From an uncultured delta proteobacterium (GTDB lineage: Bacteria; Desulfobacterota; Binatia; UBA9968): a DNA stretch of 64,000 nucleotides. Below the pieces are notes generated by a model. It saw nothing but the letters and a program-made list of their open reading frames with translations, had not been told where the DNA came from and ran no database searches. The position numbers and the translations under genes are program-made. Below, in pieces: positions 8,783 through 22,145 of the stretch (position 1 is its first letter; every line of letters starts with the position of its first letter). The stretch is taken from NCBI GenBank assembly GCA_963771465.1, contig CAVYTU010000014.1:384001-448000 (forward strand). Direction: 5' to 3'.

Positions 8783-9274
8783 CTATTGGTTGAACGAGCC
8801 GGGATCGAAGGCGGCGCCGTTGAGTGTGTATTCGCTCTTAACTTCGGTCGGCCGGCGGATGGTTTGGATCACGTAGCAGCCTGCTTCGGCGTTGCGCACG
8901 ACCTTGGCAATTTTTTCCGGCGCTTCCTTCGAAGTGATCTCGCAGCGCGTCTCGACGCCTAAGCCCTCCGCTTGCACCGTTTCGCGCAGCACCGAGCCTT
9001 CGTTCTTGAAACGCGCCGCAACGTAAACCTTGGCGTGGTCGATATGAGTTTTGAGCATTTCGCCGTACCGGGAAATCTGCGTCAGCAGTCAAAACCCCAC
9101 AGACAAGCCGAAATAAGCCAACGGCGGCGGTGCGGTATTATCGCCGCCGATTCGTTCGCCTTCATCGCAATAGACGGTGAAACCGCGCGCATGCCCTTCC
9201 TTGCGCATGCGTTCCAAGGTCTCGGCATCGGCCTCGAGAACGATCTCGCGTTTCACTTGCATGTCATCGGCCAT
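8783..9274 (-). CDS. OsmC-like (seleno)protein, 163 aa, Sec at residue 62 (UGA 9091-9089)
   Basis: ORFs 9089-9274 and 8783-9058 are in frame across one TGA: DEGERIGGDNTAPPPLAYFGLSVGF-U-LLTQISRYGEMLK...AEAGCYV. The UGA occupies the first catalytic Cys position of OsmC/Ohr proteins. Confidence 0.85.
9052..9084 (-). promoter_or_regulatory. Candidate bacterial SECIS hairpin
   Basis: TGA-C-GCA-GA-TTTC-CCG [GTA] CGG-C-GAAA-TGC-TCA; the G-initiated apical loop starts 21 nt after the UGA. Confidence 0.65.
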
Positions 9275-9341
9275 AGAGTGTCCTCCCGAGTAAAACTCTT
9301 AGTTTTCATAGCCGAGCCGGCGCCGATTGGCAATGCAGCGG

Positions 9342-10402
9342 TTATTCTTTCCGACTCAAGCGATATTCTTCGTCGTAGAGATCGATCAGCGCGGCAAGTA
9401 AAGCGAACCAAACGGGACCCAAGATCAATCCGAGCGCGCCGAACACCGCCAAGCCGCCGAGGATGCCGAACAGCAGAAAAATCGTCAGCATTTGCATTCT
9501 TGAACCGATAAAGATTGGCTTCAGAACGTTATCGATCGTCACCACCACACCCAAGCACCAGGCGAGCAAGATAATGCCCCTGACGTTGTTGCCTTGCAAG
9601 AACAGCTAGAGGCAGGCTGGAACGGTCACGAGCGTGGTTCTGCCCAGGGGGATCAGCGCGGCGAACGCCGTCACCACGCCCCAGAGCGCCGAGTAAGGCA
9701 CCCCGGTCAACCAAAAAGCCAATCCCGCGAGAAGTCCCAGGACCCTAGCCACCAGCAAGCAGCGATGCACGACCGCGGTCACGGCATTGACGATATTTTG
9801 AAATAACCCTTCTTGATGTTCACGTTCCATCGGCAAGAGCCGGCGCAGCCGGGCGGTGAATTCAGCGCCATCGCGAAAAACAACGTGACCAATACGATGA
9901 CGAAGTTAACGGTGAAGAGGAGAACGTTTTGCGCCAAGCCTTTCACTTGCGCCACGAGAACAGATGACGAAGCTTGCGCCGCTTGCACGATTAACTCTTT
10001 CCAATTGATTTGAAATCCACCGACCGGAACGACACCATATCCCACCAGCCGATAACCTGGCTCACCCACGGCGTGGCCAGCCACTGCGCCAAACCTTCAC
10101 CGCTCACAAGCGCGCGCACCGACTGCACCGATTCTACCGCTTCATCAGCCAAAACCGCGCCAGCTCGACGCCGGGGACCACGACTAACAGCTCGATCAAG
10201 GCAATGACGATAAAAGCGCCGCCAGCGTCGCGCGCCCGCGTAGGAGCTTGGTCAGCCAGGTATAGAGTGGATAGACGAGGATCGCCAAAATCACCGCCCA
10301 CGTGATCACGGGTAAAAACGGGCTCAGAATCAGAAACGCGCCGTAAAGAATCAGCAGAAAGAGCGCAAAGAAGAAAGCTGGCACGAGCCAGGTTTGGTTC
10401 AC
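9342..10402 (-). pseudogene. AI-2E (PerM) family transporter, fragmented
   Basis: Consecutive hydrophobic fragments in different frames: ILSPFLPVITWAVILAILVYPLY; ALWGVVTAFAALIP; IDNVLKPIFIG...GILGGLAVFGALGLILGP. Confidence 0.85.
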
Positions 10403-10552
10403 CGTCGAACCTCCTTGTCAATTTTTCCACCTCTACGCACAAGGTTTCAGTGCGGCAAGTGCGCCGCCGATTGAGCGATTGCCGACTGCCGACTCGCCAT
10501 AGTATAGATGCGATGAATCTTGCGAGTGAACTGACCCAGCAAGGAATCAGCC

Positions 10553-10867
10553 GTGACGCCTAGGCGAAGTCTCAGGACAATCCTGTTTGTTACTGGAGCC
10601 GGATTGGTTCTTGCCGGCGCGGCATGGAGTGCCGAAAGCGGCATCAGCAAAACTCCAGACGCGACTGGCAAGTTTTGCCACCTCAAGTTCCCGGCGATCC
10701 GCGAGGACACGCTCTACAGCGATCGGCCCATGCTCAAAGACGCCGGCAGCGGCGATATCGTCGACATCTACGCGCCCTGCGATTACGATCCCTTGGGCAA
10801 AGACGAAGTCGCGCGCCAACAAGCGCATCGCCGCCATCTGCGCGATCACCATCTGTACAGCGACTGA
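10553..10867 (+). CDS. Small secreted hypothetical protein (two Cys, His-rich C-terminus)
   Basis: AAGGA upstream, signal peptide ending AWSA, FCHLKFPAIRE...DIYAPCDYDPLG. Confidence 0.7.
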   Translation: MTPRRSLRTILFVTGAGLVLAGAAWSAESGISKTPDATGKFCHLKFPAIREDTLYSDRPMLKDAGSGDIVDIYAPCDYDPLGKDEVARQQAHRRHLRDHHLYSD

Positions 10868-11263
10868 GTGAGCGCGAGAGTCGTCGGTTCTGATTAGCAA
10901 AAATCTAAAATCTCCAAGCGCTGTGATGCCCGGCAAAAACCTCATCGTCGGACGATCCCGACAAATGTGCTGGTGCGAGCGGACGGGTCATCAGATGATA
11001 GTAACGAGTTGGAGAGCTAAAAACGCCCACTCATTCCTCAGCCCTTTATGAGGGGGATAGTAGGAAACATCTTTCTGAGATATGTACACGCAGAAGCTAT
11101 CACAACGAGCCTTCAGGAACGGCCGTTTATTTGTCGGTCATGAGATGGATGCGAAAGCCTTGCAGGGTCGGACACAAAAGTCGGCAACGAGGTTTGTTTA
11201 GAAAGTACCGCTCCCGTATGTTTTCTAGTTCCGGTTTCGCCGGTGGCGCGCCCAGTCGAAGCA

Positions 11264-11287
11264 CCACTTAAAGCATGCGGGAATGAC
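11264..11287. repeat. GTCATTCC(C)G...GGGAAT-type REP-like element (related copy at 53569-53592)
   Basis: Minus strand GTCATTCCCGCATGCTTTAAGTGG; the second copy reads GTCATTCCGTGAAAAGGGAATCCA. Confidence 0.5.
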
Positions 11288-11314
11288 GGACTTAACGCGG
11301 CGAGTAAACGAAAC

Positions 11315-14257
11315 ATGAACCTTCGTGACATGCCTTTGATTCGCTATTTCGGCGGCGGGCGCGCGCGCGGCCGGTTGATGCGCGAGTACTTTTTGATCTC
11401 GGTGCTGCTCGTCGGCGGTGGCCTGATCGCCAGCGGCGCCATCGAAATCTACTACAGCTTCCAGGAGAGCCAGGAGCACTTGGCCGACGTGCAGCGCGAA
11501 GTCGCCACCGGCGCGGCGATTAAAATCGAGCGGTTTGTGCATGAGATCCACAACACGCTCAAAGGCGCGACGCGCAGCCGCGAGATCGCACCGAAAGGAT
11601 TGACCGACGAGTTCCGTTTTGAACTGGAAAAGCTCTTATTAATCGCGCCGGCGATTACCGAGGCCGTGGCGCTCGACCGCGACGGCGCCATCCAGGTCCA
11701 GGCCTCGCGTCTGCGTACCGTGCTGCCCGACGCGAAAAAAGAAGCTGCCAGCGCCGGCGCTTTTCAAACCGCCAAGGGCGGTAAATCTTTTTTCGGCCAA
11801 GCCTATTTCGTGCGCGGCTCGGAACCTTACATGACGGTCGCCGTGCCGATTGAACGCTTCGCCGGCGACGTGATCGGCGTGCTCCAGGCCGAGGTCAATC
11901 TCAAGTACATCGGCGACGTGGTCAATAATCTAACCATCGGCAAAGCCGGCTATGCCTACGTCATCAGCAAGAGCGGCGAGCTCATCGCTCATCCGGACAT
12001 CAGTCTGGTGTTGCAGCGAAAAAACGTCTTGCAGCTGGAATCGACTCAAGTGGCCTTCGGCACAACCGGCACGACACAACAACAGCAACGGGCCCTGGTC
12101 ACACCGAATATTCAGGGCAAAAAGGTTTTGAGCGCGTCGGCGATCATTCCCGGCTTCGATTGGGCGATCATCATCGAGCGGCCGGTGGAGGAAGCCTACG
12201 AGCCGGTTTATGCCTCGATCGTGCGCACGGCGACACTACTCCTGCTGGGTCTCGGCTTGGCGTTGATCGCGAGCTTGTTCTTGGCGCGCCGCGTCATCCG
12301 TCCCGTGGGTATCTTGCGCCAAGGCGTCGAGCGCATCGGCGCCGGCGAACTGAGTCATCGCCTGGAGCTCAAGACCGGCGACGAGATCGAAGTACTGGCC
12401 GATGAGTTTAATAAAATGACCGCGCAGCTCGAAGAGTCCTATTCGAACCTGGAGCAAAAAGTCGAAGACCGCACCCAAGAATTGACGGAATCTCTCGCCC
12501 AGCAGACGGCCACCAGCGAGGTGTTGCGCGTGATCAGCAGCTCGCCGACCGACGTTCAACCCGTCTTCGATACGATCCTAACCGATGCTTTGCGGATCTG
12601 TGAATCCCACTACGGAGCGATCTTCCGCTTCGACGGCGCAGTCTTTCATCTTGCCGCAACCGCAAACGTTACGCCGGAACTACTGGCGCATTTGACCAGC
12701 AGTCCGATCAAACCCGGACGACAGAGCGCCTTGCGGCGCGTCGGCTTGGAACACCAGCCGGTGCACATCGCTGACGTGCTCGCCGATCCCGAGTGCGAGC
12801 TTCCCGAAGCCTACCGCAAGGAAGGCCTGCGCAGCGTCTTAGCGGTGCCGTTGCTCCGGGAGAATACGCTCATCGGCGCAATAACCATTCACCGTCGCGA
12901 CGTCAGGCCTTTCAGCGAAAAGCAGATCGCCCTACTAAAAACCTTCGCCGACCAGGCGGTGATTGCGATCGAAAACGTGCGCTTGTTCCAAGAACTTGAA
13001 TCCAGAAATCGCGAAATCACCGAAGCGCTGGAGCAACAAACCGCAACCAGCCAAGTATTAGGTGTCATCAGCAGCTCACCGAGGGATTTGAAACCGGTTT
13101 TCGAATCTATTCTCGCCAACGCAGCGCGGCTCGGCAGCTCCGACTACGGGGTCATTTTTAGATTTGACGGCGCGCTATTTAGTCTGGCAGCGGCCCACAA
13201 TCCTTCGCCGCAGCTCATGACATTGGCAGATCGAACCTTTCCGCCGCAACGAACCACGGCAATCGGCCGCGTCGGTTTGGAGCGGAAGGTCATCCATATT
13301 CCCGATGTGAGTGTCGATCCGGAATGGCAACCCCCGGAAGAGTACCGCGCGGAGGGAATAAAAACCGTTCTCGCCGTCCCCATGCTTAAGGAAAACACTT
13401 TGGTCGGCGTCATCGCGGTCTACCGTCGCGAAGTCCGGGCATTCACCGAGAGCCAAATCGCCCTGCTGCGGACCTTCGCCGACCAGGCGGTCATCGCCAT
13501 CGAGAACGTCCGCTTGTTCCGCGAGTTGGAAGAAAAAAATCTCCAGTTGGAAATGGCGAGCAAGCACAAGTCGCAGTTCCTCGCCAACGTCAGCCACGAG
13601 CTGCGTACGCCGTTAAATTCTATCATCGGCTTTACTCGGATCGTGCTGCGCCGCAGTGAAGGCAAGCTCGAAACCTTGCAGAAAGAAAACCTGCAAAAAG
13701 TTTTGATCAGCTCCGAGCATCTGCTGGCCTTGATCAACGAGCTGCTCGATCTCGCCAAGATCGAGTCCGGCCGCATGGAAGCATACGTCGAAACGTTCAA
13801 GCTCGACGACATTCTCCGCGTCGCCACCACCACGGTGGAACCGCTTTTGAAAACTGGCCGGGTAACACTGCTGACTGAAATCGCGCCGGATATTCCGCCG
13901 CTCAAAACCGATCGCGACAAGTTGAAACAGTCGGTGCTCAATCTGCTCAGTAACGCGGCGAAGTTTACCGAGCGAGGTGAGATCAAAGTCGCCGCCTGGC
14001 GTGACGACGGGCTGTTGAAGCTCACGGTTTCCGATACCGGCATCGGCATGAAGCAAGAAGCCTTGCAATACATCTTCGACGAGTTCCGCCAAGCCGACAT
14101 GTCGAGCACGCGCAAATACGGCGGCACCGGCTTGGGACTGGCCATCGTGAAAAAATTTATCAATCTAATGGGCGGCGACATCGTCGTCGAAAGCCAAGTC
14201 GGCCAAGGCTCCAAGTTCACCATCACTCTGCCGATGGAGCTGAGACCGGGAGCGTAA
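11315..14257 (+). CDS. Sensor histidine kinase: TM-dCache-TM-HAMP-GAF-GAF-HisKA-HATPase
   Basis: YAYVISKSGELIAHPD (Cache), GDEIEVLADEFNKM (HAMP), two FADQAVIAIENVRLF GAF ends, SHELRTPL, GGTGLGL. Start taken at ATG 11315 because the upstream part overlaps a REP-like repeat. Confidence 0.93.
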   Translation: MNLRDMPLIRYFGGGRARGRLMREYFLISVLLVGGGLIASGAIEIYYSFQESQEHLADVQREVATGAAIKIERFVHEIHNTLKGATRSREIAPKGLTDEFRFELEKLLLIAPAITEAVALDRDGAIQVQASRLRTVLPDAKKEAASAGAFQTAKGGKSFFGQAYFVRGSEPYMTVAVPIERFAGDVIGVLQAEVNLKYIGDVVNNLTIGKAGYAYVISKSGELIAHPDISLVLQRKNVLQLESTQVAFGTTGTTQQQQRALVTPNIQGKKVLSASAIIPGFDWAIIIERPVEEAYEPVYASIVRTATLLLLGLGLALIASLFLARRVIRPVGILRQGVERIGAGELSHRLELKTGDEIEVLADEFNKMTAQLEESYSNLEQKVEDRTQELTESLAQQTATSEVLRVISSSPTDVQPVFDTILTDALRICESHYGAIFRFDGAVFHLAATANVTPELLAHLTSSPIKPGRQSALRRVGLEHQPVHIADVLADPECELPEAYRKEGLRSVLAVPLLRENTLIGAITIHRRDVRPFSEKQIALLKTFADQAVIAIENVRLFQELESRNREITEALEQQTATSQVLGVISSSPRDLKPVFESILANAARLGSSDYGVIFRFDGALFSLAAAHNPSPQLMTLADRTFPPQRTTAIGRVGLERKVIHIPDVSVDPEWQPPEEYRAEGIKTVLAVPMLKENTLVGVIAVYRREVRAFTESQIALLRTFADQAVIAIENVRLFRELEEKNLQLEMASKHKSQFLANVSHELRTPLNSIIGFTRIVLRRSEGKLETLQKENLQKVLISSEHLLALINELLDLAKIESGRMEAYVETFKLDDILRVATTTVEPLLKTGRVTLLTEIAPDIPPLKTDRDKLKQSVLNLLSNAAKFTERGEIKVAAWRDDGLLKLTVSDTGIGMKQEALQYIFDEFRQADMSSTRKYGGTGLGLAIVKKFINLMGGDIVVESQVGQGSKFTITLPMELRPGA

Positions 14258-14322
14258 TCCGCAAAAGGTGAACGGCAAGGGGTTGGCGGTTATCCTTAAC
14301 CCCGCCGCTGAAAGGAAAAACT

Positions 14323-14688
14323 ATGGCGAAAAAAACCATACTCGTCGTCGACGACACCGACTGGAATCGCGACTTGCTGGTGCAGCTCTTGGAGGAAGAC
14401 TACACGATCTTGCAAGCGGTCGACGGTGCTGACGGCGTGCGCATGGCCGAAGAGCACAAACCCGACCTGATCCTCATGGACTTGGGCATGCCGATCATGG
14501 ACGGCTGGGAAGCGACGCGCACGATCAAGGCGAACGACGCGCTTAAAAATATCCCGATCATCGCCGTCACCTCCCACGCCATGGTCGGTGACGAGATAGA
14601 TGCGCGCAAAGCCGGCTGCGACGATTACCTATCCAAGCCCATCGACGACGAAGCGCTGATACAAAAAATCAAGCGCTTCATCGGTTAA
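14323..14688 (+). CDS. Single-domain response regulator (DivK-like)
   Basis: ILVVDD, PDLILMDLGMPIMDG, IIAVT, SKP. Confidence 0.93.
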   Translation: MAKKTILVVDDTDWNRDLLVQLLEEDYTILQAVDGADGVRMAEEHKPDLILMDLGMPIMDGWEATRTIKANDALKNIPIIAVTSHAMVGDEIDARKAGCDDYLSKPIDDEALIQKIKRFIG

Positions 14689-14806
14689 ACTGGGATTTTC
14701 GATGCCCGATTTTTGCAACGAAATGAAAATCATTTTTCGGGCTCAATTTTCCAGTTCCTGTTTCGACAACCCAGAATCGAATATTCTCAATGATCCTAGG
14801 TGACCT

Positions 14807-15889
<1,083 letters not shown>

Positions 15890-16068
15890 TCACCGAAGCG
15901 ATAAGTTTCTTCACAGCGGGCACAAAGGTCGCGGAGATATTTCAAATTTTCTTTCTTGCGTTCTCAGCGCCTCAACGGTGAGTTTTCTTGGTCGTCGATA
16001 GCGCTTGAAAGCCCGCTGGAAAGTCTGCCCAAGATGAAAAGTTTGCGCTATAGTAGCCCTACCGAACC

Positions 16069-16995
16069 ATGAAGCAGCGCGAAGCCACACCGGTCGATAA
16101 GTCCATCCGCGTGCGTTTTTGGGGCGTGCGCGGCAGTTATCCGACCACTGACCGGAGCAGCCGCGCCTTTGGCGGCAACACGTCTTGTGTGGAGGTTACG
16201 GCTGGCGGCCAACGTCTCATCTTCGACGCCGGCACCGGGATCATTGCGCTGGGCAAGGAGATCTGTAATGGCGCAAGCGCGCGTCCGGCCGCCTACGTGT
16301 TCTTGAGCCACACCCATATCGACCATGTGATGGGACTATGTTTTTTTGAACCGTTGCTCACGTCTGACGCCCGTTCATTCATCTACGGTCCGGGCAACTC
16401 CCATCGGGCGCTAAGCCGAAGCTTGCAACAGTTGACGCACAGCGACCTGTTCCCGGTATCCTTCGATGAGCTTAAAGGGAAAAAGGAAGTCCACTCGCTG
16501 ATCGGCGGTGAATCGATTCGTTTTCGTGGGCCCGGCAAACGACCCTTCGTCGAAAAGCATTCCACGCCGGCGCAACCTGGCGCCAGTGAGCTCACGGTCG
16601 TCGCCCATAAGAGCCCCGCCCACCCGCGCTTCGGCGTGATGCTTTACCGGGTCAACTATCATGGCAAGAGCGTGGTCTACGCCACCGACATCGAAGAGCA
16701 GGAAGGCGGCTATCCCGACGTGATTGAATTCGCCCGCGGTGCCGACCTGCTGATTCACGACGCGCAGTATCTGCAAGACGAGTACGTTTCGACTTCGAAA
16801 CCAAAAAAAGGTTGGGGCCACAGCACCATCGAAATGGCCACCGCCGTGGCCCAAAAAGCCGACGTCAAGCGGCTCGTGTTATTTCACCATGAGCCGCTTC
16901 ACGACGACCGCGCCATGGGCAAAATCGAGCAGCGTGCCAAGAGCCTCTTCCCATCAACAATCACCGCGCGCGAGCAGCGCGAGCTAAAATTGTAG
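16069..16995 (+). CDS. MBL-fold metallohydrolase (candidate cyclic-nucleotide phosphodiesterase)
   Basis: FWGVRGS, GGNTSC, SHTHIDH (HxHxDH), HDAQY, GHST, FHHEP. Confidence 0.85.
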   Translation: MKQREATPVDKSIRVRFWGVRGSYPTTDRSSRAFGGNTSCVEVTAGGQRLIFDAGTGIIALGKEICNGASARPAAYVFLSHTHIDHVMGLCFFEPLLTSDARSFIYGPGNSHRALSRSLQQLTHSDLFPVSFDELKGKKEVHSLIGGESIRFRGPGKRPFVEKHSTPAQPGASELTVVAHKSPAHPRFGVMLYRVNYHGKSVVYATDIEEQEGGYPDVIEFARGADLLIHDAQYLQDEYVSTSKPKKGWGHSTIEMATAVAQKADVKRLVLFHHEPLHDDRAMGKIEQRAKSLFPSTITAREQRELKL

Positions 16996-17025
16996 CAACC
17001 GCATGGGCAGAGCTTTGAGTCTATC

Positions 17026-17988
17026 GTGAAATTTTTTCTGGCAACTTTTCTCTTCCTCATCGCCGCGACGGCGCGAGCCCAGACGCCGATTCTCCGCGTG
17101 GCCATCTTGGTGCAGGAGATGGGCCGGGCGCAGTCCCAGGCTTTCAAAGGCGTGAGCGCTGAGCTTTCCCGACTCGGCTACCGCGAGCGCAATAACATCA
17201 AGTTTGAAATCCACGATGCCAGGGGCGACCGTAGCGCCCTGCAAGGGGCGGCCAAGGAACTGGCGGTAAAAAAAGTCGCGGTGATTTTCACCGCCGGCAC
17301 GCGGGCAACTTTAGCCGCCACCGCGGCGACCCGCGATATACCTGTGGTGTTTGTGCATCCCGGCGATCCCCAGACCGCACGCCTGATGGTTGGCTCGGGC
17401 ACCGCGGCGGAAAATCTCACCGGCGTGGCCGCCTACGCGGCGGAGACCACTGAGAAGCGGCTGGCGTTATTCAAACAAATTTTGCCCGCGCTGACGAAAA
17501 TTTATGTGTTCTATGACGCCAACAACAATTTCTCCCGAAAAAACGTTGCTCTGGTCATAGCGGCGGCGAAAAAGTTGGACCTGGCGCTTGACGCCCAGGC
17601 GATAAAGTCGACCGATGAGTTGAAGACGACTTTGGGCAATTTGCGCGCTGAACCTCGGGCGGCGATTTTTCAGATCACCGACGATCTAATCGAGAACGAA
17701 GCGGAGTTTGTTTTTGCCACGGCGCGGCAGAAGAAGATTCCGACGATGTTTAACGAAGAGTCGTGGGCGATCGGCGGCGCGACCGCGGCTTATGGCCCGA
17801 GTTATTTCGAAATGGGCCGCTTGGCCGGCCAGAGCATCGATCAGATCATCAAAGGCAAAGCGCCATCGACGCTGCCGATCCTGCGCGCGACCCAATTCGA
17901 TCTGACGTTGAACTACCGGGCCGCCACCTACATTGGTTTGCAACTGCCCAAAGATCTGCTGAAGCAAGCGAACAAGATCATTCGTTAG
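17026..17988 (+). CDS. ABC_sub_bind-type solute-binding protein, orphan
   Basis: Signal peptide; ATRDIPVVF, NLTGV, GATAAYGPSYFEMGRLA, IIKGKAPSTLPI. Confidence 0.85.
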   Translation: MKFFLATFLFLIAATARAQTPILRVAILVQEMGRAQSQAFKGVSAELSRLGYRERNNIKFEIHDARGDRSALQGAAKELAVKKVAVIFTAGTRATLAATAATRDIPVVFVHPGDPQTARLMVGSGTAAENLTGVAAYAAETTEKRLALFKQILPALTKIYVFYDANNNFSRKNVALVIAAAKKLDLALDAQAIKSTDELKTTLGNLRAEPRAAIFQITDDLIENEAEFVFATARQKKIPTMFNEESWAIGGATAAYGPSYFEMGRLAGQSIDQIIKGKAPSTLPILRATQFDLTLNYRAATYIGLQLPKDLLKQANKIIR

Positions 17989-18122
17989 CTGGTATAATGT
18001 CGGACGCTAACCCACACATGACGCAATAGACGCGCAATCGATCTTGGTCTTTGATCGTGGTCGCAGTACAGCGACGTCGCATGCGGAAATTACAGACTCC
18101 TAACTGAAGCGAAATTTTACCC

Positions 18123-20786
18123 ATGGAACCCCAAGCCGACCTCATCCGCAGCATTCCGATCTTCTCCGCACTGTCGCGCGAGGATGTCGCCAAGGTGCTG
18201 GGTAAGATGGAAGAGATTACTTTTAGCACCGGCGCGACGATTTTTAGTCAGGGCGATCACGGCGACGCCTTTTACTTGATTCAATCCGGCGCGGTGCAAG
18301 TGGTCGTCGAAAGCGGCGCGGGCAACGCCGAGGTCGTCGCCATTCTCGGCGCCAAGGATTGGTTTGGCGAGATGGCACTGCTTTCCGGCGAGCCCCGTTC
18401 GGCGACCATTAACACGGTGAAAGAAACCACACTGTGGCGGCTCAGCCGCGAAGCTTGGGATGAACTGATCGATAAACATCCCACTTGGCTGCTCCAGTTC
18501 TGCGCGACCCTTAGCAAACGGCTCTCCTACGTCGACCGGCAATATTCAACCGGACGGGAAGCTTTTAATTCTCTCGCCGAGGAGTTTTACGGCTCGCGCA
18601 CGCCCGGCGAACGGCAATTTTTCCGCCACGCCTCACTGCTCGGCGCCATCGATGCGCAGAATTTCGATCGACTCTTTCGCACCGACGGGCTGACTCAATT
18701 GATTACCGATCTTGGCAATAGTCAGTTTCCGCTGATTCGCCATCTCGGTGACGGCAAGTACGAGCTGCATAGCTTCTTTAAGGATTTCTTGCGCGAAAAA
18801 CTAAATTCCATCGACGGCGCCGAAGCGATGCAGCGGCTCCATGCCGATTTTGCCGAGCGCTACGAAGCTCTCGGCGATTGGCCGCAAGCGTTGCATCACG
18901 CCGTGCACGGCCAAGATTGGTCGACCGTGACCCGTCAATTGACCGCGCAAGGTGAGCACCTGCTTGCCGACGCGCCGCTGTTGGTAAAGAACACGCTGGA
19001 GAGCGTTCCCCAAGAGCAACTCTTGAGCAGCCCCCGCTTGGTCAACTTGAAAAGCAACGTCTTGATCCAGCTCGGCGATATCGCCGGCGCCTATCGAACC
19101 TATCATCAGTTGTTGACGCAAAAGACCGCGGGAGCAATGGGCATGGATACCATTGTCGGCTATCGGCGCATGGCGGAAACTTTGGCGCAGCGAAAAGAAT
19201 ACGCCCAAGCCATCCATCAATTACGCGCCGCACTCAACGTGTTGGACCAAGATAACGCCATGACAGGAGATTTCTCTGAAGTTCCAACGGATATACCGCG
19301 GCTGCAGCCGACGGATGCGACGGCGCATGAGCAGCAGCGCGCCGACCGATCGGCCAACCGTTTGCGAACAACCATCGCTGCGCTGCGCTCGTCGGCGCTG
19401 TCAAAATGGTTCGGCGCGCTGGCCGGACTCGCGGCAGGCAGTTATCTCTGGTTCGGACAGCCCGACATCGGCCTCGATACGGCGGCGACGAAATTGCTCG
19501 GATTGATTACGGCAACCTTAACTTTTTGGGTCTTTCGTTCGCTGCCGGATTACGGCGTCGCGTTGATGTTCGCGATGATCATTGTCCTTACCAATTTGGA
19601 ATCGGCGCAAACGGTCATGGGCGGGTTCGCCAGCACGACATGGTTTATGACGCTTGGTGTCTTGGGCCTCGGTGCGGCAATCACCGGCTCGGGTTTATTT
19701 TACCGGTTGTCACTCCACTTGGTGCGCCTGTTTCCGCTGAGCTTTTACTGGCAGATCATCGCCACGGGTATCATGGGTGTCGTCGTCATGGCACTGATTC
19801 CGCAGCAGACCGCCCGCACGGTCATCACCAGCCAGATGCTGATTAATCTTTCCGAGAGCTTGGGTTACAAGACGCCGTCAAAGGCGTCCACCGGGCTATT
19901 CACGGCGAGTTTTCTCGGCTTGGGGCAGCTCGGTTTTTTGTTTCTGACCGGCTCGACGACGAGCTTGATCGCTTGGGGTCTGCTGCCGACAGATGTGCGG
20001 GAGCAGTTTACCTGGGGCTATTGGTTTCTCGCCGCGCTGCCGCCGACGCTGGTGGTCATCGTTATCATCCTAGGGAGCTCGATCATTCTCTTTCGGCCCG
20101 AATCGCAACCGAAGATTTCCTACACCATGGTGCAGACGCAATTAGAAATTTTGGGGCCGCTCTCGTCTAAAGAATGGATTAGCCTCGCGGTCCTTTGTTT
20201 CACGGTGGGTGGCTGGCTCACGACAGCGCATCACGGCATCGACAGCGCCTGGATCGCCATCATCGCGTTTTCGGTTTTGGTCAACACCGGCATTCTTGAC
20301 TGGAGTATGATGCGCAAGGGCATCGACTGGGAATTACTAATTCACATGGGCGTGACTCTAAGCATCCCGACGCTGTTGAAAGCGGCAAAGATCGATCAGT
20401 GGCTGGTCGACGTGATTTCACCGTTGATTCTGCCGTTCATGGACACCCCGGCATGGTTTTTCATCATCATCGCGCTGTTGACCTATGCGCTGAAATTAGT
20501 TTTCACCAGCTTCCTGGCCGTGGTCACGCTCTGCGTCGCGTTGCTGCCGTTGTCGATCGACGTTGGTATGAATCCATGGATTATCGCCATGATCATTCTC
20601 ATCGCCTCGGAAGTTTGGTTTTTTCCCTACCAGGTCGACTGGCACATGCTCGCCTACTCCACCACCGACGGCAAAGGATTTTTTTACCCGCTCATGTGCC
20701 GGGTAAATCCCATTTATGCCGTAGCCTACATCGCCGCGCTCGTTGCCGCGATTCCATACTGGCGTTATCTCGGTTTGATGAATTGA
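18123..20786 (+). CDS. cNMP-binding domain + MalT-like winged-helix/arm/TPR region + SLC13/DASS anion permease
   Basis: FGEMALLSGEPRSAT phosphate-binding cassette; KYELHSFFKDFLREKL...LHADFAERYEALGDWPQALHHA; C-terminal multi-TM region with GSGLFYRLSL, LIPQQTART, FLTGS, TWGYWFLAALPP, LGPLSSKEW. Confidence 0.85.
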   Translation: MEPQADLIRSIPIFSALSREDVAKVLGKMEEITFSTGATIFSQGDHGDAFYLIQSGAVQVVVESGAGNAEVVAILGAKDWFGEMALLSGEPRSATINTVKETTLWRLSREAWDELIDKHPTWLLQFCATLSKRLSYVDRQYSTGREAFNSLAEEFYGSRTPGERQFFRHASLLGAIDAQNFDRLFRTDGLTQLITDLGNSQFPLIRHLGDGKYELHSFFKDFLREKLNSIDGAEAMQRLHADFAERYEALGDWPQALHHAVHGQDWSTVTRQLTAQGEHLLADAPLLVKNTLESVPQEQLLSSPRLVNLKSNVLIQLGDIAGAYRTYHQLLTQKTAGAMGMDTIVGYRRMAETLAQRKEYAQAIHQLRAALNVLDQDNAMTGDFSEVPTDIPRLQPTDATAHEQQRADRSANRLRTTIAALRSSALSKWFGALAGLAAGSYLWFGQPDIGLDTAATKLLGLITATLTFWVFRSLPDYGVALMFAMIIVLTNLESAQTVMGGFASTTWFMTLGVLGLGAAITGSGLFYRLSLHLVRLFPLSFYWQIIATGIMGVVVMALIPQQTARTVITSQMLINLSESLGYKTPSKASTGLFTASFLGLGQLGFLFLTGSTTSLIAWGLLPTDVREQFTWGYWFLAALPPTLVVIVIILGSSIILFRPESQPKISYTMVQTQLEILGPLSSKEWISLAVLCFTVGGWLTTAHHGIDSAWIAIIAFSVLVNTGILDWSMMRKGIDWELLIHMGVTLSIPTLLKAAKIDQWLVDVISPLILPFMDTPAWFFIIIALLTYALKLVFTSFLAVVTLCVALLPLSIDVGMNPWIIAMIILIASEVWFFPYQVDWHMLAYSTTDGKGFFYPLMCRVNPIYAVAYIAALVAAIPYWRYLGLMN

Positions 20787-21109
20787 CAACCGTTCGCTGC
20801 GTTCTCGGCGATCTCGTCCGAATCTCGTTATCAACCCTTGTCATAATCGTGACGACAGTTGCAGACCGCAGCAATCCCGTCGTCCGTGCGATTTTCAGTG
20901 GGAAAATTCACTGGGCACGGAGAAATTCAAGCGCATCCAGATCATCAACACCACCTCGTCGTCAATTTTAGAGAACTGAGCAGTAATAAAACGTCCTGAT
21001 AAATGGTCTTTGCGTTTGTTATCCCTACAACTCTTTGCTTGAGCTTCGATTCAACCTATTGAGTTTTACTTAGCGTGAGTAAAATAATTTCTAAAATGAT
21101 ATTTTTTTC

Positions 21110-21139
21110 TTGACATACCATTTGTTGTGCCTTAATAAT
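21110..21139 (+). promoter_or_regulatory. sigma70-type promoter with AT-rich UP region
   Basis: TTGACA at 21110-15, TAATAAT at 21133-39, A/T tracts at 21081-21109. Confidence 0.65.
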
Positions 21140-21254
21140 CGATCCAGCTACAAAATATGGGAGGGTTCCAGAAGTAAATCGTCTCCGCCTGAGTCATACT
21201 TTACTGCCTGTCAAGTAAAAGCCCGCCCGTGGAATTTTAAAAGGAGGTGCTCTT

Positions 21255-21302
21255 ATGGCTGCTAAGAAAAAAGCCAAGAAGAAAGCCAAAAAGAAAAAGT
21301 AA
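21255..21302 (+). CDS. 15-aa lysine-rich peptide MAAKKKAKKKAKKKK
   Basis: AAGGAGGT at 21241-48, ATG at 21255, TAA at 21300-02; has its own promoter and terminator. Confidence 0.75.
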   Translation: MAAKKKAKKKAKKKK

Positions 21303-21385
21303 CTATCTACTAGATGTGGGGTTGTGGTGGTGTTTTAAACCCTCCTTACTCTCAGGCGACAAGGTAACTGTTCTGGTTGCCTAAT

Positions 21386-21429
21386 ACACAGAGCCCTTCA
21401 AGCGTCAGCTTGAAGGGCTCTGTGTTTCT
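21386..21429 (+). terminator. Intrinsic terminator, perfect 18-bp stem
   Basis: ACACAGAGCCCTTCAAGC-GTCA-GCTTGAAGGGCTCTGTGT followed by TTCT. Confidence 0.85.
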
Positions 21430-21581
21430 GCCGCGTCCGCTTCACTTTTGAGTCATTGACTTCGCTGCACTTTCGCTCCTGACGCAACATCCGTTCAGTG
21501 TCCAGCTGTGGGTGAGCGCTCGGGTCGGCTCGGGAAGACTTAGTATTGCGTCGCTCCAATCAAATGGTTAGAGTTATTGCC

Positions 21582-22145
21582 GTGAATGTATTGTTTCACC
21601 GTCACTCGCTGGCGTTGATTCTGGTGACCTTGAGCGTGGTATCGCTGAAGCCGGCGCCGGCGTTGACGCAGTCGAAGGTTGATTACAAAGCCGTACCGAT
21701 TCTTCAGGCGATGAAAGAAGTCGCTCCGACACCGGAGATCAATCTCGCCACGCCGGACGGTAAAAAACTTTCGCTCAAGGATTTCCGCGGTAAGATCGTC
21801 CTGCTCAACTTCTGGGCGAGCTGGTGCGTGCCCTGTCGCGAAGAAATGCCGGCGATGGAAAAACTCTATCAGGAATTTAAAGACAAAAACTTCGTTATCC
21901 TCGCGGTGGCCGTCAAAGACCGCAAACAAGATGCCGTCGACTTCGCTAAAGAGCTCAAGATCACCTACCCGATCGCTCTCGATCCTGACGCAAAAGTCGG
22001 TCAGGAGTACGGTGCCTGGGGACTGCCCGCTACCTACATCATCGGTCCCAAGGGCGAAGGCCTTGCTCGCGGTTGGGGGCCGGCCGAATGGTACGGCAAC
22101 GGTGCGAGAAAATTGATCAGAGATCTGGTCGACGGTAAACGATGA
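21582..22145 (+). CDS. TlpA/ResA-like thiol-disulfide oxidoreductase
   Basis: LNFWASWCVPCREEMP, WGLPATY. The GTG start lies 7 nt after a TTGCGT-17-TAGAGT promoter. Confidence 0.9.
   Translation: MNVLFHRHSLALILVTLSVVSLKPAPALTQSKVDYKAVPILQAMKEVAPTPEINLATPDGKKLSLKDFRGKIVLLNFWASWCVPCREEMPAMEKLYQEFKDKNFVILAVAVKDRKQDAVDFAKELKITYPIALDPDAKVGQEYGAWGLPATYIIGPKGEGLARGWGPAEWYGNGARKLIRDLVDGKR

Follow-up and report, generated by a model that had tools for sequence, protein, structure and literature searches.

In the 64,000-nt stretch of contig CAVYTU010000014.1 from an uncultured Binatia bacterium analyzed here (the window, to which all positions refer), six co-directional genes on the + strand, between positions 11315 and 20786, encode a sensor histidine kinase, a lone receiver, a receiver-cyclase, a metallo-β-lactamase (MBL)-fold hydrolase, a periplasmic solute-binding protein (SBP) and a permease that joins a cyclic nucleoside monophosphate (cNMP)-binding domain to a membrane domain of the DASS/SLC13 fold. 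These six genes had been given, with the same coordinates and domains, in a preliminary description made from the letters alone, and they were confirmed here with open reading frames (ORFs), Pfam and NCBIfam. The 64-kb window holds one cyclase domain and one cNMP domain, both within the cluster. The features of the cluster are the following.

11315..14257, + strand: sensor histidine kinase with a transmembrane segment, dCache_1, a second transmembrane segment, HAMP, two GAF, HisKA and HATPase_c domains (Pfam and hydropathy)
14323..14688, + strand: single-domain receiver, 121 aa (Pfam Response_reg, 2e-28)
14807..15889, + strand: receiver, coiled linker and class III nucleotidyl cyclase, 360 aa (Response_reg 4e-30, Guanylate_cyc 7e-22)
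16069..16995, + strand: MBL-fold hydrolase, 308 aa, candidate phosphodiesterase (Pfam Lactamase_B_2, 2e-20)
17026..17988, + strand: PF04392 periplasmic SBP, 320 aa (Pfam ABC_sub_bind, 3e-49)
17990..17998, + strand: TGGTATAAT, a weak, possible extended -10 element before the permease gene
18123..20786, + strand: whole permease, 887 aa (cNMP_binding 6e-24, residues 33–119; Na_sulph_symp 4e-37, residues 428–885)
18123..18542, + strand: permease residues 1–140, cytoplasmic cNMP-binding domain (Pfam; cassette FGEMALLSGEPRSAT)
18558..19397, + strand: permease residues 146–425, MalT-like winged-helix "arm", TPR-like repeats and a disordered segment (382–423)
19404..20786, + strand: permease residues 428–887, membrane domain of the DASS/SLC13 fold (Na_sulph_symp, 128.7 bits)

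For comparison, we collected 57 loci in which the permease is 52–92% identical to that of the window by a profile search of genome contigs with a 10-sequence alignment; the loci belong to related genomes, so counts over them are not counts of independent events. They come from metagenome-assembled genomes (MAGs) labeled Candidatus Binatia, "delta proteobacterium", Syntrophobacter(aceae) and a few other phyla. Neighboring genes were mapped by tblastn and phmmer with the window proteins or their domains, and 30 neighbor proteins were checked by Pfam.

The permease and the adjacent solute-binding protein

The N-terminal domain of the permease scored 84.4 bits with PF00027 (cut-off 27.5), and its matches in the PDB were the domains of PKA, PKG, CRP and SthK (SthK, 2.5e-12). 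In the cassette FGEMALLSGEPRSAT, the G-E pair was found in all 34 aligned family members and R-S-A-[TS] in 33 of the 34, down to 25% identity. The membrane domain has both the profile and the fold of the DASS/SLC13 family: it scored 128.7 bits with PF00939 (cut-off 27), Foldseek returned AtDiT2.1 (9MCU, TMt 0.84) and VcINDY (4F35, TMt 0.83), and the nearest proteins by sequence were AtDiT1 (1.6e-16) and LaINDY (2.7e-11). The score with TIGR00785, 134.6, was under the cut-off of 198.6. Over AtDiT1/AtDiT2.1, LaINDY and VcINDY the shared membrane fold gave TMt values of 0.81–0.84, whereas identity to the DASS dicarboxylate carriers was about 15–21%. Throughout the family, many residues of the membrane domain do not vary. 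Three STT triplets were tried as the tips of the DASS hairpins and discarded, since alignment to DiT1 and LaINDY puts the first tip at IPQQTART, where these carriers have IPS(V/N)SAR; for this reason we make no claim about the substrate from motifs.

The cNMP and membrane domains are separated by a 280-residue region with a winged helix and TPR-like repeats, which the preliminary description had missed. In the AlphaFold model of the permease (pLDDT 79, pTM 0.50) a β-barrel is followed by a long helix (121–158), a winged helix (161–215), helical repeats (217–382), a disordered segment (382–423) and the membrane domain. Permease residues 150–313 aligned to residues 254–418 of MalT (NCBIfam PRK04841, E = 2e-11), and the linker also matched TPR_2 (3.5e-5). 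No Pfam match to HTH_Crp was obtained in the permease, the CRP model spans residues 20–141 only, and the protein does not fall into the CRP/FNR family. Because the winged helix matches the MalT "arm" and HTH_Crp is absent, the linker is in our reading a coupler of STAND type, made of winged helix and TPR repeats, rather than a DNA-binding domain. The same architecture could instead belong to a transceptor or scaffold, a protein that serves chiefly as a signaling hub and has an output other than transport, with the DASS domain as substrate sensor and the TPR region as the site where partners are recruited. STAND regulators use MalT-like winged-helix and TPR regions of this kind to bind partners or inducers, the approximately 225 N-terminal residues of the permease superpose on whole CRP-family proteins (TMt 0.5–0.6), and a σ54 regulator gene follows the permease gene in L002, L009, L013, L015, L026 and L056. 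We nevertheless find this account very doubtful, because the MalT "arm" that the winged helix resembles does not bind DNA, the short forms described below drop the TPR region and keep the cNMP and DASS domains, and the invariant membrane-domain residues and the SBP partner argue for transport.

Fusion of a cNMP domain to a DASS carrier is not unique to the window. An exhaustive search gave 614 representatives at E ≤ 1e-30, and a word-indexed search gave at least 120 clusters of 72–93% identity named "SLC13 family permease [Candidatus Binatia bacterium]" or "anion transporter". Both cNMP_binding and Na_sulph_symp were detected by Pfam in 58 of 60 proteins sampled from the best 150 of the 614 (627–1380 aa, with 1 or 2 matched stretches; fragments and giant multi-cNMP proteins were excluded). 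The fusions occur in a long form of about 880 aa and a short form of about 640 aa without the TPR region, and one short form came from a Chitinophagales MAG. Distant family members, from Methylomirabilota and Chitinophagales, show 27–35% identity. The Atlas holds one cluster of 144 members (Binatota) and another of 228 members (approximately 802 aa; commonest phylum Methylomirabilota), and the JGI pipeline labels some fusions "di/tricarboxylate transporter/CRP-like cAMP-binding protein". The preliminary description knew of no characterized example. In the literature this holds, as we found no study of cNMP-domain DASS/SLC13 carriers or of this cluster (subscription journals were outside the coverage); the fusions themselves are common and automatically annotated. 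Related architectures seen outside the window were a CstA, cNMP and DASS fusion (P0197, 1380 aa) and two proteins of about 560 aa with cNMP and Peripla_BP_6 domains and no DASS domain (P0291, from a Bacillota MAG, and P0292).

Like the permease, the cNMP-gated K+ channel SthK joins a canonical cNMP domain covalently to a membrane transport protein, so that the messenger acts without transcription, and MloK1 is another cNMP-gated bacterial K+ channel. These channels are tetrameric and carry the domain at the C-terminus, whereas the permease has it at the N-terminus of an elevator-type DASS carrier. It also adds the winged-helix/TPR insert, an SBP partner, and a cyclase and a candidate phosphodiesterase encoded alongside. 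The same idea is realized in other carrier families by cNMP fusions to MFS transporters, ATP:ADP antiporter-like proteins and PCAT ABC exporters, for which neither an SBP nor a linked cyclase or phosphodiesterase has been described. A 2023 review lists MFS transporters fused to cyclic nucleotide-binding (CNBD), PAS and UspA domains, the UspA fusions being given there as uncharacterized in transporter regulation (PMC10710835), and an ATP:ADP antiporter-like protein carrying a cNMP domain has been described in Arthrospira (PMC2853384).

The gene directly upstream of the permease gene encodes an SBP with a signal-like N-terminal segment (MKFFLATFLFLIAATARA). Its nearest PDB entries were 3LKV, 3LFT and 6HNI, and its score with the TrpX model was 150.5, below the cut-off of 390. 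The flanking ORFs that were scanned (867–32966) include no gene for an ABC permease or ATPase, and to this extent the term "orphan" used in the preliminary description is fair. The protein is, however, probably the partner of the permease. Among the 49 loci holding the permease 5' end and at least 1.1 kb of upstream sequence, 42 have an SBP orthologue (40–66% identical) no more than 500 nt upstream of the permease gene and on the same strand, with a gap of 2–20 nt in most loci. This adjacency was kept in all kinase-less loci and in the clade with a relocated kinase. Since the SBP is the most constant neighbor of the permease, it probably serves the transporter.

There is a precedent for an SBP that docks on the DASS fold, as the membrane parts of TRAP transporters share this fold according to PMC12344293, which also describes TAXI-GltS as a "new class" of SBP-dependent carrier proposed in 2025 mainly through gene linkage and modeling. 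TRAP, TTT and TAXI-GltS systems resemble the cluster in encoding a periplasmic SBP beside a secondary carrier. The cluster differs from them in that its SBP belongs to PF04392 and not to DctP, TAXI or TctC, and in that its carrier has a cytoplasmic cNMP sensor; no additional gene for a small membrane subunit (Q- or TctB-like) was found within 16995–20786. Complex prediction with SBP residues 20–320 and membrane-domain residues 428–887 gave a score of 0.35 (runs of 0.35, 0.39 and 0.00; best control 0.00), with a between-run contact agreement of at least 0% and a partner pLDDT of at least 79. Of the 157 solved complexes in the benchmark of this procedure, 116 came up to the mark, as did 2 of 215 mismatched pairs; 18 of the 157 and both mismatches did so with a score of at most 0.60. 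We take the prediction as a hint of, and not as evidence for, an SBP-membrane domain complex. From the gene linkage (42/49) and this weak prediction we infer that the carrier may depend on its SBP. A metagenomic protein of 1005 aa (P0175) combines cNMP, DASS and a C-terminal Peripla_BP_6 domain in one chain. A search with its SBP part gave no second cNMP-DASS-SBP fusion, and among longer SBP-containing proteins we found one unrelated protein of 980 aa and no SBP-DASS or SBP-kinase fusion, which is weak evidence.

Several observations speak against this partnership. Seven of the 49 loci have no adjacent SBP (L033, L042, L044, L046, L048, L051 and L054), one of the three complex-prediction runs scored 0.00, and the P0175 fusion is a single sequence on a single contig. 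PF04392 proteins are known to bind aromatic amino acids, a class of substrate atypical of DASS carriers. Moreover, further PF04392 paralogues, 1–4 per locus and 25–33% identical to the SBP of the window, flank kinase and receiver genes in many loci (L002:3-5220, L004:1-1796, L008:227-2312, L022:403-6950, L027:252-6768, L046:1314-8834 and L047:1703-5769) and may be periplasmic co-sensors of the dCache kinase. They suggest an alternative in which the SBP of the window serves the kinase as a periplasmic ligand sensor and its position next to the permease gene is incidental. However, the kinase-side SBPs are distinct paralogues and none lies beside the window kinase, and the SBP orthologue stays with the permease also where the kinase is missing or has moved. 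We therefore regard a sensor role for the kinase as unlikely and retain the SBP as the probable partner of the permease.

The cyclase, the kinase and the hydrolase

The solved structures nearest to the cyclase domain are those of P. aeruginosa CyaB (3R5G, 4e-33) and 2W01 (2e-27), and the domain scored 78.3 bits with PF00211 (cut-off 21.9). Across 19 orthologues, residues D9, D10, D53, T83 and K105 of the receiver part are invariant, as are the metal-binding D186 and D230 and the transition-state residues N306 and R310 of the catalytic part, which are the residues expected of a response-regulator receiver and of a class III cyclase. From the invariance of both sets, the protein is likely to be catalytically competent and controlled by phosphorylation. 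A receiver in front of a class III catalytic domain is also found in cyanobacterial CyaC, which is reportedly activated by phosphotransfer, as the title of Kasahara and Ohmori 1999 has it; the cyclase of the window differs from CyaC in its simple architecture of receiver, linker and cyclase.

The base-specifying pair of the cyclase is Arg226 (LERFMGDG; 15482–15484) and Gly299 (MDYGTVG; 15701–15703). The arginine was found in 18 of 19 orthologues, and the glycine is replaced by Ser in 3 of the 19 and by Asp in 1; a fourth orthologue with Ser at this position, from L007, was seen in a separate alignment. By alignment, CyaB has Lys/Thr and 2W01, which we take to be the guanylyl cyclase Cya2, has Glu/Gly. 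Two observations stand against a simple assignment to cAMP signaling: the Arg/Gly pair matches neither the adenylyl pair (Lys with Asp or Thr) nor the guanylyl pair (Glu with Cys, Ser or Gly), and most class III cyclases beside the permease family are non-canonical as well (Arg/Gly, Asp/Gly, Asn/Gly or Glu/Thr). In this survey, which covered cyclase genes of L018, L022, L025, L030, L040, L041, L005, L019, L023, L033, L043, L014 and L054, the CHASE2 cyclases of L018 and L022 had the sole Lys/Thr pairs among the neighboring cyclases aligned. Those of about 630 aa, together with the one of 917 aa in L041, had Asp/Gly. Those of about 750 aa had Asn/Gly, with Asp/Gly in L043, and the HAMP-cyclases beside the permease had Glu/Thr. 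It appears that the product of the permease-side cyclases cannot be inferred from the usual specificity rule. The cNMP cassette of the permease resembles those of cAMP receptors, and cAMP is the most likely messenger, a tentative assignment in view of the Arg/Gly pair of the cyclase.

The kinase upstream carries a dCache_1 domain (7e-25) that lies between two hydrophobic segments and is predicted to be periplasmic, followed by HAMP (5e-13), GAF (2e-39, two stretches), HisKA (1e-20) and HATPase_c (4e-29) domains. Its longest ORF starts at a GTG at 11243; we favor the ATG at 11315, which gives 980 aa, because orthologous kinases measure 978–983 aa. The H-box SHELRTPLN at residue 761 of the 980-aa protein and the ATPase domain identify it as a histidine kinase. 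Kinase orthologues, with 45% identity or more over the catalytic part, were found in 15 loci and, in addition, one was found in L008. The NKFDE motif was not found in the GAF domains, and feedback of the messenger through cNMP-binding GAF domains of the kinase was dropped as a candidate on this ground. The lone receiver shows by eye the usual pattern of an Asp pair, phospho-acceptor Asp, Thr/Ser and Lys, and its orthologues (68–92% identical) adjoin the kinase or receiver-cyclase gene in related loci.

The fourth gene encodes an MBL-fold protein that scored 73.7 bits with PF12706 (cut-off 27). In the stretch S80-H-T-H-I-D-H86, residues S80, H81, T82, H83, D85 and H86 are invariant in 22 orthologues, as are H185, D207, H251 and H273, and the stretch contains the motif [T/S]HxHxDH of the atypical class-II phosphodiesterases; the same motif was seen in RNase Z by alignment, so that it does not discriminate between the two. 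These enzymes (Rv1339, YhfI and Corynebacterium CpdA) are defined by the PF12706 fold and this motif, and are akin to RNase Z, according to Thomson et al. (PMC9293780). They hydrolyze cAMP and cGMP according to this article and to Hobbs et al. (PMC9117128), the latter stating that YhfI strongly prefers them. Foldseek with the MBL model (pLDDT 78.5, pTM 0.85) ranked B. subtilis YhfI first (6KNS, E = 9e-14, TMt 0.74). BA1088 (1ZKP) was also near, and Apyc1 and yeast PDE1 ranked 40 and 47. The protein is longer than the atypical class-II enzymes (308 versus about 244–273 aa, with extra loops at 22–37 and 150–175), and in the Foldseek alignments its identity to these enzymes and Apyc1 is 18–22%. 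It has neither a signal peptide nor a transmembrane segment and is therefore cytoplasmic, in the same compartment as the messenger. We consider it a candidate cNMP phosphodiesterase of the RNase Z/YhfI branch.

The best argument for this role is a swap of genes at one position. In L019, L023, L028, L029 and L034 the MBL gene is absent and a gene of 256–266 aa on the opposite strand lies directly upstream of the SBP gene; the product in L029 matched PDEase_II (PF02112, class-II cAMP phosphodiesterase) with 58 bits and also Lactamase_B_2. In L054 the same PF02112-family gene lies 2.9 kb upstream and the MBL gene is again absent. This suggests that one phosphodiesterase substitutes for another.

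Some evidence on the hydrolase points the other way. RNase Z (1Y44) ranked fourth in Foldseek with nearly the same E-value as YhfI (4e-13), all NCBIfam matches are far under their cut-offs, and the score with the cNMP-phosphodiesterase model NF041851 was 43.9 bits against a cut-off of 400. In the rearranged clade described below, the gene stays with the SBP and permease genes and not with the cyclase gene, which is compatible with a local sink for the messenger or with a role in substrate metabolism. The protein may thus be an RNase Z-like nuclease, or an esterase (of sulfate or phosphate esters, for example) that processes the transported substrate. In favor of this, its best NCBIfam matches are RNase Z models (TIGR02651, 89.7 bits, and NF000801, 89.4 bits), and PhnP-family proteins, PqqB and an arylsulfatase are among its fold matches. 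The RNase Z scores are themselves under the cut-offs of 292.95 and 252, and the preference of the top fold match for cyclic nucleotides, the cytoplasmic location and the replacement by a PF02112-family gene in 6 loci are against it. We think a nuclease or esterase rather unlikely and keep the protein as a candidate phosphodiesterase.

A cyclase next to a membrane protein with a cNMP domain is also the arrangement of Pycsar anti-phage systems, in which the effector would kill or arrest the cell. At the level of domains, PADLOC matched the cyclase with PycC (60.5 bits) and the cNMP domain with Pycsar effector models (52.4 bits), and the specificity pair of the cyclase is non-canonical. These matches are, however, confined to shared domains, the effector would be an 887-aa DASS carrier with an SBP and not a small transmembrane or TIR effector, regulation of the cyclase appears to run through a two-component system, and a candidate phosphodiesterase is encoded in cis. 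The cluster is also embedded in a conserved housekeeping synteny in many MAGs (thioredoxin-TPR on one side; AhpC-DsbD-GTP cyclohydrolase I-M17 on the other) and not in a defense context with a cyclase and a small effector. We rejected a defense function, which we hold to be extremely improbable.

Gene neighborhoods in related genomes

The preliminary description had proposed the conservation of the neighborhood in relatives as a check, and the outcome was favorable. The order receiver-cyclase, MBL, SBP and permease recurs in 14 loci (L002, L004, L005, L007, L008, L010, L018, L021, L022, L027, L038, L045, L047 and L056), and the arrangement goes beyond chance. In 19 of 41 loci the 4 kb upstream of the permease gene contain a receiver-cyclase gene, and in 20 of 33 a class III cyclase gene of any kind is at most 4 kb away; the 13 loci without a near cyclase include L011, with a receiver-cyclase 8.8 kb downstream, and L012, L015 and L026, with the kinase block at the end of the flank. 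An MBL gene is adjacent upstream in 23 of 47 loci, and an MBL or PF02112 gene in 28 of 47. The association with the receiver-cyclase is scattered over the permease tree. Distant loci without it have a CHASE2- or HAMP-cyclase within about 1.4 kb of the permease gene, the CHASE2 variants measuring about 630 aa when encoded on the - strand and about 750 aa when encoded on the + strand. Such a cyclase takes the place of the receiver-cyclase in L014, L019, L023, L025, L030, L037, L040, L041, L043 and L050, and both kinds occur in L005, L018, L022, L033 and L054. Overall, the DNA up to 4 kb from the permease gene, 360 kb in total, contained 36 cyclase genes, and the 378 kb at a distance of 4–10 kb contained 3, a 12-fold difference in density. 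The most cyclase-rich genomes in Galperin's census have 37 cyclase genes (PMC1183210), a density of far less than one per 100 kb by our own arithmetic with typical genome sizes.

In the rearranged clade, the MBL, SBP and permease genes directly follow the thioredoxin-TPR gene. In L011 and L013 the genes for the kinase, the receiver and the receiver-cyclase, together with one for an SBP paralogue, lie 4–9 kb downstream of the permease gene; in L012, L015 and L026 the kinase gene is at the end of the fetched flank (with the receiver gene in L012 and L015), and in L009, which belongs to the same clade, the contig stops 1.8 kb beyond the permease gene. The preliminary description had called the module self-contained, and this is too strong. 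Neither a cyclase gene nor a kinase block was found in 7 of the 18 loci with full 10-kb flanks (L028, L032, L039, L042, L044, L048 and L051), so the permease can respond to cyclases encoded elsewhere, and this too is adverse to a closed circuit. The cNMP cassette is intact in the permeases of cyclase-less L042 and L044, the ones that were aligned.

These findings raise the possibility of two separable units, one of kinase, receiver and cyclase and the other of MBL, SBP and permease, with the permease reading a cell-wide cNMP pool and the cyclase feeding other receptors as well. The relocation of the kinase/cyclase block to a place 7–9 kb downstream in L011 and L013, and probably in L012, L015 and L026, while the other three genes stay in place, agrees with such a division, as do the loci without cyclase or kinase block that keep the cassette and the presence of other cNMP-domain proteins near the permease in L027, L028 and L042. 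It is opposed by the concentration of cyclase genes close to the permease gene, by the substitution of differing cyclase types at the same place, by the relocated block still being less than 10 kb away, and by the window having its sole cyclase and its sole cNMP domain in the cluster. We consider two independent units possible and the less probable account, and favor a single functional set. Across three cyclase architectures, two phosphodiesterase families and one rearrangement, the same set of functions stays together. To judge from gene content the circuit is modular, with the SBP-permease pair as its constant core and with a cyclase and phosphodiesterase that vary by lineage and are interchangeable; in the lineage of the window the cyclase appears to be under a dCache two-component kinase.

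Other conserved genes were seen in these neighborhoods. The σ54-dependent regulator located directly after the permease gene is an NtrC-type response regulator of 447 aa (REC, Sigma54_activat and HTH_8; L002:12669-14012, +); it occupies the same position in the other five loci named above and is absent from the window. The - strand CHASE2-cyclases are accompanied by DUF928/TPR and CHAT-domain proteins (L030:12828-20790, -; L041:5469-9243, -), and a + strand CHASE2-cyclase by an FecR/TPR protein of 1143 aa (L023:13326-19080, +); CHASE2-cyclases and their partner genes look like a separate conserved sensory module. In L030 the gene that diverges from the SBP gene immediately upstream of it encodes a periplasmic-type 5'-nucleotidase of 521 aa (Metallophos and 5_nucleotid_C; L030:7285-8850, -), and - strand ORFs of 505–570 aa are found in this position in the distant loci L025, L032, L035, L037, L040, L043 and L050, as a match of position only. 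This may reflect simple synteny or a connection with the turnover of nucleotides. The additional cNMP-domain proteins are a pyridine-nucleotide-disulfide oxidoreductase of 796 aa that has 4Fe-4S motifs beside two cNMP domains (L027:12880-15270, +) and stand-alone proteins of 178–185 aa (L028:17447-18004, -; L042:8941-9477, -).

The genes flanking the cluster in the window are unrelated housekeeping genes: a thioredoxin-TPR gene and small ORFs without a family on the - strand upstream, and genes for AhpC/TSA, a DsbD-like protein, GTP cyclohydrolase I and an M17 peptidase downstream. ORFs between the thioredoxin-TPR and kinase genes (9779–10945, -, and 8972–9511, +) had no Pfam family, and the ORF at 10134–10442 has a 52–59% identical counterpart in the same relative place in L011 and L052. 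Within the cluster the gaps between genes are, in gene order, 65, 118, 179, 30 and 134 nt, and no + strand terminator-like site was found in any of them. Possible internal promoters had been noted in the preliminary description, and both motifs, TATAGT at 16049 and TGGTATAAT at 17990, are present, TGGTATAAT-type sites occurring twice in the 64-kb window against 0.38 expected. A consensus scan of 10500–22000 gave 6 promoter-like sites against 5.2 ± 2.2 in shuffled sequences, which is no excess, and none in the gaps holding the two motifs. Nor was conservation seen: TGNTATAAT was found between the SBP and permease genes in none of the 57 related loci, and the pattern occurred elsewhere in 5. The evidence for internal promoters is weak. 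A search of 10900–21600 against Rfam gave one chance-level match and nothing meaningful.

Between the permease gene and AhpC there is a strongly conserved intergenic unit (21081–21430, +), with a near-consensus promoter (TTGACA-18-AATAAT, 21110–21139), a Shine-Dalgarno sequence, a 15-codon ORF (21256–21303, MAAKKKAKKKAKKKK) and a hairpin terminator at approximately 21391–21427. Its nucleotide identity is 74–89% over 290–455 nt in 9 loci, with a further 57 nt at the end of L013, and a near-identical peptide is encoded in L001, L002, L016, L017, L022, L033, L049, L053 and L056. The unit had no match in an Rfam search.

A proposed circuit and its meaning

Altogether, the domains, the conserved catalytic and ligand residues, the folds and the gene linkage observed here lead us to read the cluster as a Binatia-type system for the post-translational control of solute uptake by a second messenger, with a probability of roughly 0.55. 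The dCache kinase would sense a signal in the periplasm, which it faces, and phosphorylate both the lone receiver and the receiver domain of the class III cyclase. The phosphorylated cyclase would make a 3',5'-cyclic mononucleotide. Its hydrolysis by the MBL enzyme, a member of the RNase Z/YhfI ("atypical class II") branch, would reset the signal. By binding to the N-terminal cNMP domain of the DASS-fold secondary transporter, the messenger would alter, with either a positive or a negative sign, the activity of the membrane domain through the winged-helix/TPR linker. The PF04392 SBP would hand the substrate, probably an anion and possibly a dicarboxylate or an acidic amino acid, to the membrane domain, presumably for import. 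In this form, the sense-synthesize-degrade-respond circuit of the preliminary description finds support in silico from linkage, conserved residues and the YhfI-like fold of the hydrolase; its completeness at a single locus and the identity of its messenger are less firm, as the circuit is modular and the cyclase pair unusual. To the adverse points given above we add that all of the support for the members of the cluster is computational and that the counts come from related genomes. The kinds of parts combined here are known ones, as the cluster brings together cNMP-regulated membrane transport and SBP-dependent secondary transport.

To our knowledge, bacterial cAMP and cGMP signaling is known almost entirely through transcription factors and a small number of channels and enzymes. 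That a messenger could act directly on a secondary nutrient carrier has been recognized from fused domains, and we found no test of it in the literature. The cluster offers a compact test case, because a sensor, a cyclase, a candidate phosphodiesterase, a receptor-carrier and a binding protein are encoded side by side, and the natural variants with a swapped cyclase or phosphodiesterase are ready-made controls. The hosts are uncultured Binatia-like soil bacteria, so heterologous work will be needed. The Arg/Gly cyclase may widen the rules by which the product of a cyclase is predicted from its sequence. If the SBP serves the DASS carrier, the pair would form a new class beside TRAP, TTT and, since 2025, TAXI-GltS. 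A more far-reaching version, which we put forward only tentatively, is that PF04392 SBPs and cNMP-DASS carriers form an unrecognized class of SBP-dependent carriers gated by the cNMP sensor through a STAND-like arm, and that the Arg/Gly cyclase makes a messenger other than cAMP (cGMP or another cNMP). If true, the uptake of a nutrient in these bacteria would respond within seconds to a private second-messenger loop made up of kinase, cyclase and phosphodiesterase.

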